A stretch of DNA of 36,418 nt from Candidatus Nomurabacteria bacterium (lineage in GTDB: Bacteria; Patescibacteriota; Minisyncoccia; Phycocordibacterales; UBA9973). Numbering within the stretch: the stretch's first letter is position 1; each line of letters starts with the position of its first letter. Both the position numbers and the translations under genes were made by a program. A model generated the notes under the pieces. The model ran no database searches, was not told where the DNA came from, and saw nothing but the letters and a program-made list of their open reading frames with translations. This document shows, piece after piece, positions 26,718 through 29,076 of this stretch. The DNA is taken from contig CALRET010000003.1 in the NCBI GenBank assembly GCA_943356375.1, positions 1 through 36,418 on the forward strand, given 5' to 3'.

Positions 26718-27045
26718 CGCGGCCAACCGGGCTCGAACCGGCAACCTCTCACGTGCACTAAATCCAATATTTTCATAAAGGCGTGGACTATATCTTTACC
26801 AATAGGTGTAGAGTTCCCTTCGCCGAGAATACTCGGCATAAGTGTTCGCTACGCTCCCTTAGGTACTCCGGTATCTAGTCTCTACGGCGCCCCCGACCGT
26901 ATGTCGGGGTTCCCTCGGTATTCGCATATCCGTCACATGACGAACTTAGCCTCCACCGATATCCCAGAGAGTTTCAATCTGCCCTTTCGACAGAAAGCTG
27001 CACGAATCTACAGGCGAGTGCTCTAACCAGTTGAGCTATGGCCGC
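26718..27045 (-). tRNA. tRNA-Asp(GUC) interrupted by a group I intron (exons 27045-27010 and 26755-26718)
   Basis: Spliced product GCGGCCA TA GCTC AACTGGTTA GAGC A CTCGC CTGT|CAC GTGAG AGGTT GCCGG TTCGAGC CCGGT TGGCCGC G forms a complete 74-nt cloverleaf. Confidence 0.93.
26756..27009 (-). mobile_element. group I self-splicing intron, 254 nt, no internal ORF
   Basis: Exon U before the 5' splice site pairs U-G with IGS GCAG; P7 elements GTAGAGACTA (26885-26876) and AAGATATAGTCC (26796-26785); ATCGGTG/TACCGA P4; terminal G. Confidence 0.92.
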
Positions 27046-27716
27046 AAATGTTTAAACTTTTCAAAAATTACCCTCTTTCTCTTGAGATACAGTATAGGTA
27101 AATCTTTGACCATACCATTATACATAAAATCATATAATTTCAAAGAGTCTTTGGCGCTGAATTGCAAACGGGAAAAATTTCCTTTTGCTGTATATAAGGA
27201 TCCTCCCACTACGCCATGAATACGAAGTCTTTCGTGTATATCATGTAAAAATCTATAAGAACAAGAAGTAAACATTGTCTGCAACCCGAGTAAGGGAATT
27301 TTTCTTGATTTATGTAAAAATCCAACCCATACATTTCCATCTCCATCAAAATATCCCCTAATGAAATCAGGAAAATATTTTTTCGAAATATATGGTACCG
27401 CTAAACTTTTTGTTTTATTTTCTGAAAATCCAATTGCTCTTAAATCATTACACATCTCTATACTACCAATCTGTAACCGATATTGTGTCTTCTCAGTACG
27501 ATTTTTTCTTTTCCGAACACTGATTGCGTGATTTGATCCGATAATTTTTCTGATAGAAAAAAGTAGATTTCTATCTGTAATTTGAATACACCAAAATTGC
27601 CCGCCTCGTTTATTTACCGTAATATATCCGTCTGCAGCAAAAAATCCGACTACGTATGCCATGGTACCCGTCCATTTTTTAAAAAAATTCTTATTCACCT
27701 TTTTATATACAGGCAT
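27036..27716 (-). CDS. free-standing double-motif LAGLIDADG homing endonuclease
   Basis: AYVVGFFAADG and DFIRGYFDGDG motifs; stop codon lies inside tRNA-Asp; ATG 27716 is 6 nt after TG-c-TAGTAT. Confidence 0.9.
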   Translation of the reverse strand: MPVYKKVNKNFFKKWTGTMAYVVGFFAADGYITVNKRGGQFWCIQITDRNLLFSIRKIIGSNHAISVRKRKNRTEKTQYRLQIGSIEMCNDLRAIGFSENKTKSLAVPYISKKYFPDFIRGYFDGDGNVWVGFLHKSRKIPLLGLQTMFTSCSYRFLHDIHERLRIHGVVGGSLYTAKGNFSRLQFSAKDSLKLYDFMYNGMVKDLPILYLKRKRVIFEKFKHLRP

Positions 27717-27791
27717 ACACACATACTAGCATGTGACAGGAAAATATACTAACCATACACCCGAACAATATTGGAGAAAAAATAAGAAATG

Positions 27792-27865
27792 TGTCGACGG
27801 GTGGAATCGAACCACCGACCTTGGCTTTATGAGTGCCACGCTCTAACCGTCTGAGCTACGCCGAC
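27792..27865 (-). tRNA. tRNA with CAU anticodon (elongator Met or Ile2)
   Basis: GTCGGCG/CGTCGAC acceptor, TGGCA-CTCATAA-AGCCA arm with A31:A39 mismatch, TTCGATT T-loop. Confidence 0.9.
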
Positions 27866-27918
27866 AATAGGAGAAATATAGCATATTTTTACTAAATTTC
27901 AATATGATGAATGATTTT

Positions 27919-28272
27919 TTATTTTCTCCGTTTGAAAGTCCGTATTCTATGACAGTTTGCACATACGAGTTCACATTTTTCAATTTCTTTCTTCACTTTA
28001 TCCATATTTGATGTTTGTTGGTAAAATGTGGAAATATTAAATTCTTTGTTATTACCTATATGATCAAATTCTAAGACTTCAGGATATTCCTTCCCCATAA
28101 ACCCACAGTCGGTACATTTATTATTCTGTTTATAATCTAAAATGAAATCAGAAATCTTTTTTTTAATTCTGTCAACATATCCTATATGCTTTTCTCTGTT
28201 CTTGGGATACCAAATTTCCCGCATATATTTCTTATGACGTTCTTTCCTTTTTGTTATATCTTTATAGGGCAT
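27919..28272 (-). CDS. free-standing HNH endonuclease
   Basis: CTDCG...LEFDH...CELVCANCHRIRT zinc-binding HNH pattern; likely start MPYKD at 28272. Confidence 0.88.
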   Translation of the reverse strand: MPYKDITKRKERHKKYMREIWYPKNREKHIGYVDRIKKKISDFILDYKQNNKCTDCGFMGKEYPEVLEFDHIGNNKEFNISTFYQQTSNMDKVKKEIEKCELVCANCHRIRTFKRRK

Positions 28273-28325
28273 AATACTCATAAATCATAGCATTTATGAG
28301 CCCCTACTGTAAATACATAAAATTG

Positions 28326-28396
28326 TTGCGGAGGGCCGAATCGAACGGCCACCTCAAGGTTATGAGCCTTGCGAGATGCCTTTTCTCTACTCCGCT
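28326..28396 (-). tRNA. initiator tRNA-fMet(CAU)
   Basis: 1:72 mismatch (A:A), A11:U24 pair, CAAGG-CTCATAA-CCTTG arm. Confidence 0.87.
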
Positions 28397-28449: not shown

Positions 28450-29076
28450 CTAGATTTGCCCCATATCACTCAATACTTCACCAAACTGATCGATTGCTAT
28501 TTTTGCATCTCGTTGAGAGAGTTCGAATGCAGACCCATCATGAGCAATACGATTTCTCACTTTATGTGCTTCCCACGCACTATCAATATTAGGTATATCA
28601 CTCTTGTCAGCATTTTTCAGACGATCACCAAGTGAATCACCGGGAATACCCATAGTTTTAGTCACCTCTTCAAGAATAGTATCTGCTTCGATAATAGCCA
28701 ATCGCCATTCTGATGAATTAACACTATCGACATGTTGCAGAACCTGTTCCCAGCGTGCGTTTTTAGGTGGAGCGATTTCAGCTTGTTTTTGTTTTGCAAA
28801 TAATGCTTTCATTTTTTCAGCTTCTTCTTTTTTGATCTCCCAAATACGTACCAATGAGTACAGAATAATCGTAATAAGGATGATTGCCAAAACGATAAGG
28901 AAATTTTTTAACATCACCCAAAAGAGAGATTCGGAAACGGAATTCAAAAGACCACCGTTGCTAGAATTTTTTGATGCATATCCAGAATCACGAAGTGGTA
29001 CGCCAACCCAAAGCAACAAGCGATACACTTGATAAAAGAAATAATCTAAATTTAAGAAATTAGTCAACCCATTCAT
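28450..29076 (-). CDS. membrane-anchored hypothetical protein
   Basis: TM segment, then W...WRLAIIEAD...G.SLGDRLK..AWEAHKVRNRIAH (RxxxxH, HEPN-like). Confidence 0.75.
   Translation of the reverse strand: MNGLTNFLNLDYFFYQVYRLLLWVGVPLRDSGYASKNSSNGGLLNSVSESLFWVMLKNFLIVLAIILITIILYSLVRIWEIKKEEAEKMKALFAKQKQAEIAPPKNARWEQVLQHVDSVNSSEWRLAIIEADTILEEVTKTMGIPGDSLGDRLKNADKSDIPNIDSAWEAHKVRNRIAHDGSAFELSQRDAKIAIDQFGEVLSDMGQI

Follow-up and report, generated by a model that had tools for sequence, protein, structure and literature searches.

A conserved tRNA-like element at the promoter of a tRNA-attached LAGLIDADG endonuclease gene in Patescibacteria

Results

The tRNA-Asp-like element and its conservation

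A 36,418-nt stretch of DNA from a Candidatus Nomurabacteria bacterium (contig CALRET010000003.1 of assembly GCA_943356375.1; hereafter the window) carries on its minus strand, at 26718-28396, an array of tRNA genes in which a free-standing LAGLIDADG endonuclease gene overlaps the 5′ end of an intron-split tRNA-Asp gene. We found that the right half of a 23-bp element, TGGTTAG-N8-CCTGTCAC (27755-27733), which overlaps the promoter of this gene directly 5′ of an extended -10 box, repeats the intron-less anticodon loop of tRNA-Asp, while its left half repeats the D-loop, with the native spacing kept; compared with the D-loop-to-anticodon segment of tRNA-Asp, 17 of 24 positions are identical. As judged by comparison across relatives, the element is real and conserved, is derived from a tRNA, overlaps the promoter and changes with the neighbouring tRNA. 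We propose, as a tentative reading that falls just short of probable, that this gene family sits on the 5′ end of one particular tRNA gene and that its own promoter is built on a copy of about 23 bp of the D-loop-to-anticodon segment of that tRNA, to which the endonuclease would bind.

The original prediction, made from the letters of this array, had described CCTGTCAC as a mimic of the anticodon loop and had left chance open. Since CCTGTCAC occurs in 8 copies in 1.3 Mb (both strands of the genome), which is about what composition predicts, a single copy of the motif proves nothing, and chance was therefore judged from relatives. A wider scan gave at least 525 relatives of the LAGLIDADG gene; the Asp set of 85 loci consists of the best 80 and of 5 Asp-type loci from a search of 60 related genomes. 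An exact CTGTCA within 120 nt upstream of the gene was found in 62 of the 85 loci, compared with a mean of 2.4 and a maximum of 7 in shuffled sequences, and GGTTAG stood exactly 9 nt before CTGTCA in 36 loci. By a looser criterion, the element was present in 68/85 loci. The anticodon-loop copy upstream of the LAGLIDADG gene is thus conserved in orthologous loci, which indicates that it is no chance match. The loop is copied as had been described, but the copy is larger and runs from the D-loop through the anticodon loop.

The position of the element relative to the promoter was also conserved. A TATAAT box lies at a fixed distance from the element, with base frequencies of 0.76-0.96. In 54 "long" loci, the extended -10 box starts 4 nt past CAC and the start codon (ATG or GTG, then CC) follows 6-8 nt on; in 14 "short" loci, the middle of the element reads TGTATAAT, which is itself a working -10 box, and the start codon overlaps CTGTCA. 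This spacing suggests that the LAGLIDADG mRNA is probably leaderless or nearly so. The ATGC that separates the motif from the -10 box in the window is the (A)TGn of the extended -10, and orthologues have GTGA, GAGG and other sequences in its place. ATGCTAnnnT occurs in 3 copies within this 1.7 kb but is not enriched genome-wide (83 found compared with about 136 expected), which shows that ATGC is no special signal.

Co-variation of the element with the neighbouring tRNA

In the test that the original prediction had proposed, the motif next to the -10 box co-varied with the neighbouring tRNA, with almost no cross-matches (Asp form in 62/85 loci, Leu-GAG form in 25/35, Leu-TAG form in 7/11). The Leu-GAG set comprised 35 loci, in 34 of which that tRNA was called directly downstream. 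These Leu(GAG) paralogues carry TTGG(T/C)A(G/T)AC-GCTAnnnn-CTTGAGG-TATAAT, the count of 25 being that of loci with TTGAG. CTTGAG was found in 0/85 Asp loci and CTGTCA in 0/35 Leu-GAG loci. TTAG within 3 nt of the -10 box was seen in 7 of the 11 Leu-TAG loci compared with 1 of the 35 Leu-GAG loci, and the elements of these two sets differ at exactly the anticodon bases and are otherwise alike. In addition, GACTTAAAA follows the -10 box in two near-identical places, L192, with tRNA-Leu(TAA) directly downstream, and L195, where the contig ends and no downstream tRNA was called.

The spacing of the two blocks was 8 nt in 22 of the 23 Leu-GAG elements that fitted the measure (12/35 loci gave no match) compared with 7 nt in all 30 of the real tRNA-Leu genes that fitted it (5/35 gave no match). 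Because of this 1-nt difference, an ungapped 24-nt window matrix shows the block for Asp and fails for Leu. The difference also shows that the elements are inherited from one another and move along with the cassette, and are not made afresh at each insertion.

A whole tRNA 5′ half, including the acceptor stem, is found upstream of the endonuclease gene in two Leu loci, L150 and L180, and upstream of an HNH endonuclease gene next to tRNA-Gln (L117). This persistence shows that such cassettes come with a duplicated tRNA 5′ half or generate one. In most loci, the two loop blocks have escaped the decay that has overtaken the acceptor and stem parts. The original prediction had offered a target-mimic operator and an insertion scar as alternatives; both survive, and both are probably true, with the full 5′ halves pointing to a scar and the conservation to functional retention. 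The element may accordingly be described, with a confidence that stops a little below the halfway mark, as the relic of a duplicated tRNA 5′ half that selection would have kept as a promoter and probable autorepressor operator.

Layout of the array

The source genome (G000; 657 kb in 49 contigs, 38% G+C, 90.8% complete) has metagenome-assembled genomes of Patescibacteria as its relatives. The minus-strand order that had been proposed for the array, tRNA, HNH gene, tRNA(CAU), LAGLIDADG gene and intron-split tRNA-Asp, was confirmed together with its positions. Both promoter motifs were likewise found where they had been placed, CCTGTCAC-ATGC-TAGTAT at 27740-27723 and GGCTCATAA-ATGC-TATGAT at 28302-28284. 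The features, all on the minus strand and given in order of transcription, are as follows.

28325-28396, minus strand: tRNA(CAT), initiator-like, with a 1:72 mismatch (ARAGORN; Rfam tRNA 55.3 bits)
28277-28313, minus strand: HNH promoter region, TTTACA-18-TATGAT with TG (28313-28284), GGCTCATAA at 28302-28294 (sequence)
27919-28281, minus strand: free-standing putative HNH endonuclease gene, open reading frame (ORF) 28281/28272-27919 (Pfam HNH, just below the cut-off)
27875-27902, minus strand: promoter-like site before the second tRNA(CAT), TTGAAA-16-TATATT with TG (sequence)
27791-27865, minus strand: second tRNA(CAT), elongator Met or Ile2 (ARAGORN; Rfam tRNA 65.6 bits)
27733-27755, minus strand: tRNA-Asp-like bipartite element, TGGTTAG-TATATTTT-CCTGTCAC (comparison with tRNA-Asp and orthologous loci)
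27723-27732, minus strand: extended -10 box, (A)TGC-TAGTAT, start codon 6 nt downstream (sequence)
27036-27716, minus strand: free-standing two-motif LAGLIDADG gene, start ATG 27716 (MPVYKK), ORF 27722/27716-27036 (LAGLIDADG_3)
27010-27045, minus strand: tRNA-Asp(GTC) 5′ exon, ending CCTGT (joined exons)
26756-27009, minus strand: ORF-less group I intron, between anticodon bases 35 and 36 (RF00028)
26718-26755, minus strand: tRNA-Asp 3′ exon, starting CAC (joined exons)

The joined exons (27045-27010 and 26755-26718) form a perfect 74-nt tRNA-Asp cloverleaf. The 254-nt interruption of tRNA-Asp(GTC) at 27045-26718 matched RF00028 with 35.3 bits (E 1.5e-7), below the gathering score of 50 bits; an Rfam search over 3 kb missed the intron, and a narrow search over 371 nt detected it. 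No second tRNA-Asp gene was found anywhere in the assembly, which is 90.8% complete.

The LAGLIDADG family and its attachment to tRNA genes

The LAGLIDADG protein of the window matched Pfam LAGLIDADG_3 above the cut-off (E 9.2e-10). Across 12 aligned members of the family, D31-G32 and D126-G127-D128-G129 were invariant, so that both LAGLIDADG motifs keep their acidic residue, and the closest solved relatives by profile were 2dch, a putative homing endonuclease (6e-12), I-AniI (1.7e-8) and I-HjeMI (3.1e-7). The invariant acidic residues and the closeness to homing endonucleases among solved proteins make it probable that the enzyme is active. NCBIfam gave no meaningful match for either the LAGLIDADG or the HNH protein.

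Across 61 genomes (60 related ones and G000), 19 LAGLIDADG matches, the window's own included, were found in 16 genomes. All 19 were followed directly by a tRNA on the same strand, and the ORF ended at -11 to +44 nt relative to the tRNA start; the tRNAs were Asp, Leu-GAG, Leu-TAG, Tyr and Ser. In the Asp set, a tRNA-Asp 5′ exon lies downstream in 83 of the 85 loci. The ORF overlaps tRNA-Asp by exactly 10 nt in 54/83 loci, where the stop codon is U8-A9-G10 of the tRNA; in the window, the stop codon TAG (27038-27036) corresponds to positions 8-10 of tRNA-Asp. Upstream of the LAGLIDADG gene, a tRNA-Met was found on the same strand in 64/80 loci. With the stop codon inside the tRNA, RNase P processing at tRNA position 1 would leave an endonuclease message stripped of its stop codon, and tRNA maturation and translation may therefore be mutually exclusive for each transcript.

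Linkage between the intron and the endonuclease gene

The tRNA-Asp gene beside the endonuclease gene carried an intron in 42/83 loci, and the other 41/83 loci have the gene without an intron. TGGTTAG-N8-CCTGT was found in 29/42 intron-carrying compared with 3/41 intron-less tRNA-Asp genes of this kind. For comparison, we used an even sample of 300 genomes of the class, in which an Asp-type gene was present at E <= 1e-30 in 17. The canonical interrupted site was found in 29/83 gene-adjacent loci compared with 1/283 class genomes without the gene, under a pattern that misses introns in tRNA-Asp genes with other D-loops. Within the sample, the interrupted form occurred only in G292, which has no detectable endonuclease gene; outside the sample, it occurs in the window genome. 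Thus, the tRNA-Asp intron hardly occurs outside loci with the LAGLIDADG gene. In G292 the locus (L196, G292:C4:175000-177000) is in an intron-only state, in which a 42-nt spacer separates tRNA-Met from a tRNA-Asp gene with a 204-nt intron and no LAGLIDADG gene was detectable.

The intact intron-less site, TGGTTAGARC-N5-CCTGTCAC, was present in 56 of the 300 genomes, 55/283 without the gene and 1/17 with it. The single genome with both, G143, has its gene beside tRNA-Cys and not beside tRNA-Asp. An intact element-like site was rarer in gene-adjacent tRNA-Asp genes (3/83) than in genomes without the gene (55/283; Fisher p 2e-4, shared ancestry ignored). The promoter copy holds the uninterrupted junction CCTGT|CAC. 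The original prediction had pointed out that the interrupted tRNA-Asp gene no longer contains CCTGTCAC, which fits the tight linkage between intron and endonuclease gene. D-loop changes as a form of immunity in the intron-less tRNA-Asp genes were also considered and were dropped (3/41 vs 55/283, p 0.08).

Sporadic distribution and insertion states

Metagenome contigs at a likeness threshold of 85%, which come from related organisms, provided the population evidence. In one contig, the second tRNA(CAU) is identical to that of the window and the first nearly so, and 61 nt lie between them compared with 448 nt holding the HNH gene and its promoter. In another, the tRNA-Met 3′ end is joined straight to tRNA-Asp with no LAGLIDADG cassette. 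In one contig, all that is left of the LAGLIDADG ORF is its 3′ end, as in L013 with its 42-aa remnant. An exact skip of the 254 nt, joining 26755 to 27010, was also observed. Contigs that lack a cassette, keep an ORF remnant or lack the intron are thus all represented, and those without a cassette indicate that the cassettes, including their tRNA-like promoter pieces, are insertions between intact tRNA genes. With sporadic presence (17/300 class genomes), presence/absence alleles and decayed copies, the traits of a homing element are found, and as far as the genomes tell, the LAGLIDADG cassette behaves as a selfish element.

The HNH gene and its motif

The HNH protein scored 21.1 bits against Pfam HNH, whose cut-off is 21.4 (E 3.5e-4), and CxxC...DH...N...CxxCH is readable in the translation. 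Homology with L117, L026 and L126 makes ATG 28272 (MPYKD) the likely start codon. The relatives of this gene fall into three groups. One consists of ORFs in tRNA group I introns, the second of free-standing genes attached to tRNA-Arg, tRNA-Pro or tRNA-Gln at the 5′ end of the tRNA, and the third of genes near tRNA-Phe. A tRNA-like remnant at varying position was found upstream in 4 of 14 free-standing HNH loci, the window included: L117 and L122 have a clear remnant and L126 a borderline one, and that of the window measures 7-9 nt. L117, which is the best homologue of the window gene, has a 37-nt tRNA-Gln 5′ half in which 30/37 positions are identical. The original prediction had stated that two unrelated nuclease families share one layout of anticodon loop, ATGC and -10 box; this did not hold as a rule, with ATGC being merely part of an extended -10 and remnants being present in only these 4 of the 14 HNH loci.

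In the genome, GGCTCATAA has 4 copies in 1.3 Mb (both strands), about the composition expectation. When the 43-nt HNH upstream region was shuffled, a 9-mer match to tRNA-fMet was reached in 10/2000 shuffles and an 8-mer match to tRNA-Met in 27/2000. In the window, the -10 box TATGAT is surrounded by a perfect inverted repeat of 8 bp, with CTCATAAA at 28300-28293 as one arm and TTTATGAG at 28284-28277 as the other. This repeat, for which a rough hand estimate gives a chance of about 0.01, could be an operator, and CTCATAA may be one of its arms. Most likely, if weakly supported, the CTCATAA motif is a short remnant of a tRNA(CAU) 5′ half that the cassette carries. The earlier caution that chance was not excluded stands for the HNH motif, which has no orthologue support, and falls for the LAGLIDADG motif, for which conservation excludes chance.

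Several further features of the HNH relatives were observed. Homologues are carried within group I introns of a tRNA gene with a 5′ exon terminating in ...CTGT (Asn-GTT or Thr-TGT by ARAGORN), with a -10-like box between exon and ORF (L022, L023, L028-L033, L120, L123, L124, L127, L129-L133, L138-L141 and L143-L145). G000 has a second HNH gene on contig C16 (1682-1849; L036), near tRNA-Phe and tRNA-Arg(CCT), and upstream of it stand the D-arm-like GTAGAGCA and then ATGCTATATT, with the same form of -10 box as in the window. The free-standing HNH genes of L026, L126, L134 and L137, beside tRNA-Arg(TCT), have in common a conserved GGGTTAGA(A/G)T block upstream of the -10 box, which is closer to a tRNA T-arm (GGTTCGAAT) than to an anticodon loop.

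Discussion

A model in which the element acts as an operator would run as follows. The 5′ half of a tRNA gene would have been duplicated when the cassette formed, giving rise to the element. The endonuclease would recognise the intron-less tRNA-Asp gene around CCTGT|CAC and hence also bind the copy at its own promoter; in this copy the middle has been replaced by an AT-rich, -10-like sequence, and because its middle differs from that of the target, the copy would be bound and not cut. Like I-TevI at its operator, the bound enzyme would occlude the promoter and hold endonuclease synthesis in check. In the resident tRNA-Asp gene, the intron would split the same sequence and make the gene immune, and intron and endonuclease gene would spread together by collaborative homing. 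We infer that the D-loop-to-anticodon segment is the homing site. A much stronger form of the model, in which every one of the at least 525 genes has as its promoter a non-cleavable copy of its own target that serves as an autorepressor operator and switches with the tRNA, and in which the stop codon in the tRNA makes tRNA maturation and endonuclease synthesis exclusive for each transcript, seems to us rather unlikely.

Several observations weigh against the proposal that the promoter is a tRNA copy bound by the endonuclease. By the looser criterion, 17/85 Asp loci lack the element. The logo of the element was built from motif-selected loci and is partly circular, although the CTGTCA counts are free of that selection, and the counts across loci come from related genomes with no correction for phylogeny. 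The depletion of the intact site was not significant in the class sample alone (1/17 vs 55/283, p 0.21) or when only intron-less gene-adjacent tRNA-Asp genes were counted (3/41 vs 55/283, p 0.08). Outside the Asp and Leu-GAG/Leu-TAG sets, six Phe-associated relatives have a D-arm-like block only (GCTC[AG]GTGG in 2/6, CTGAAG in 0/6), 3 Tyr relatives and 1 Cys relative have by eye a D-loop-like block at most, and by eye no element was seen in 2 Leu-CAG relatives and 1 Ser relative. The Leu-GAG element is not an exact geometric copy of its target. In addition, its D-loop block, TTGGCA or TTGGTA, is also readable as a -35 hexamer 18 nt from TATAAT, so that plain promoter function could conserve the block. 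For the HNH gene, there was no orthologue above 46% identity in 400 class genomes, and 10 of the 14 free-standing HNH relatives showed no tRNA-like remnant upstream.

The element could instead be a scar turned promoter to which no endonuclease binds, a left-over tRNA 5′ half that promoter function and inheritance with an often-moving cassette have conserved. We take this explanation seriously, while considering it on the whole unlikely. It agrees with the complete 5′ halves in L150, L180 and L117, with the reading of the Leu elements as TTGGCA-18-TATAAT, and with the TATAAT-like middle of the Asp element, which acts as the -10 box at the 14 "short" loci; the block spacing of the Leu elements, off by 1 nt from that of real tRNA-Leu genes, likewise indicates descent of the elements from one another and not tuning to a target. 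However, the anticodon-loop block, at about -24 to -17 in Asp loci and -18 to -12 in Leu loci, is as conserved as the -10 box, and we know of no general promoter element at either position. Promoter function would also leave unexplained that the Leu-GAG and Leu-TAG elements differ at exactly the anticodon bases with the rest alike, and that in most loci decay has reached the acceptor and D-stem parts and spared the loop blocks. Chance, which the conservation in 62/85 loci against 2.4 expected excludes for the LAGLIDADG motif, is a serious explanation only for the HNH motif, 7-9 nt in an AT-rich spacer, and we rate it as improbable. The genomic count of GGCTCATAA, the lack of anything comparable in the 10 HNH relatives and the post hoc nature of the motif search speak for it, whereas the 9-mer was reached by only 10/2000 shuffles, the motif is an arm of the perfect inverted repeat around the -10 box, and the best homologue, L117, has its 37-nt tRNA-Gln 5′ half in the same place.

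The blocks might also serve as homology anchors, giving the broken tRNA end a match from which to prime repair synthesis on the donor and thus allowing homing across species with differing flanks. Only the universally conserved tRNA loops are kept and the species-variable stems are not, as this explanation would have it. Yet the cassette already has a whole tRNA gene on either side that can act as a homology arm, as in the contig that joins tRNA-Met to tRNA-Asp and with the tRNA-Met upstream in 64/80 loci, and the blocks span only 7-8 nt, which is very short for recombination; we therefore regard an anchor as very improbable. Less credible still, to the point of being nearly negligible, is a tRNA mimic that acts in RNA, such as a thrS-type translational operator or a processing signal. 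In its favour, transcripts that start at the upstream tRNA promoter and read through could contain the element, as the stretches between the tRNAs showed no terminator-like site. Against this, TTTTC and ATGCT, which flank the loop block, are not complementary, so that no hairpin like an anticodon arm would form, and the element lies upstream of the cassette's own -10 box and would thus be absent from a leaderless mRNA, as the spacing suggests this one to be.

Homing endonucleases must stay at low levels to avoid harm to the host. To our knowledge, self-regulation of homing endonucleases is documented mainly for phage T4 enzymes. For I-TevI, the GIY-YIG enzyme of the phage T4 td intron, an operator that is identical to the homing site at 15/20 positions overlaps the promoter of the endonuclease gene; I-TevI binds this operator, cleaves it poorly and represses transcription (PMC2988022). 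Similarly, a copy of the presumed homing site with a differing middle overlaps the LAGLIDADG promoter. The present case differs in that the enzyme is a LAGLIDADG (and possibly an HNH) endonuclease, the gene is free-standing, the target is a tRNA gene and the setting is a bacterial chromosome; moreover, the site co-varies across subfamilies with different targets, and binding and repression are here proposals drawn from sequence. The co-occurrence of a free-standing endonuclease gene with an ORF-less intron whose site is the presumed target resembles collaborative homing (PMC3984707, PMC2790892). What sets the present case apart is a presumed target in a cellular genome, the anticodon loop of a tRNA gene, together with the fusion of the endonuclease gene to the 5′ end of that tRNA and the lack of an intron at 41/83 loci. 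Phage T4 SegB, a free-standing GIY-YIG endonuclease encoded in a tRNA gene cluster, has a recognition site that holds a conserved tRNA motif and so provides a precedent both for an endonuclease gene between tRNA genes and for a tRNA motif as target; SegB differs in its enzyme family, its phage origin and its T-psi-C stem-loop motif, and its abstract makes no mention of a promoter copy of the target (PMC2330249). In Patescibacteria, LAGLIDADG endonucleases in rRNA introns are described as common (PMC11809585). These belong to the same phylum and enzyme family but lie inside 16S/23S rRNA insertions, whereas the family of the window is free-standing and tRNA-attached. We found no description of tRNA-attached LAGLIDADG genes in Patescibacteria in open-access full texts and preprints, where those described for these bacteria were all in rRNA insertions.

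If the promoter copy is indeed an operator, the principle of self-regulation would extend to LAGLIDADG enzymes and to cellular tRNA genes, here through a large gene family of ultrasmall bacteria, and this would be the first operator of such a kind for a LAGLIDADG enzyme. Genome sequence alone would then give hundreds of natural pairs of enzyme and recognition site, and this sequence-only read-out of specificity would be useful for meganuclease engineering. In addition, the locus illustrates that in reduced genomes single-copy essential tRNA genes are hot spots for selfish elements, and here the intron, the endonuclease gene and the tRNA are physically interlocked.

Additional observations

Introns of group I size (180-280 nt) were called by ARAGORN in the anticodon loops of Leu-CAA, His-GTG, Thr-GGT and Met-CAT genes of relatives (L003, L004, L013, L040, L049, L055, L075, L093 and L110-L112), and tRNA introns seem to be common in this clade. 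Upstream of the array, an ORF at 28450-29076 encodes 208 aa with a membrane-like N-terminus and has weak Pfam matches only, such as Swt1-like HEPN (E 0.067). Both endonuclease ORFs of the window (28272, MPYKD; 27716, MPVYKK) open with ATG-CCn followed by TAT-AAA-like codons right after their -10 boxes, as do those of relatives; this common opening may reflect a shared need of leaderless starts, or chance.

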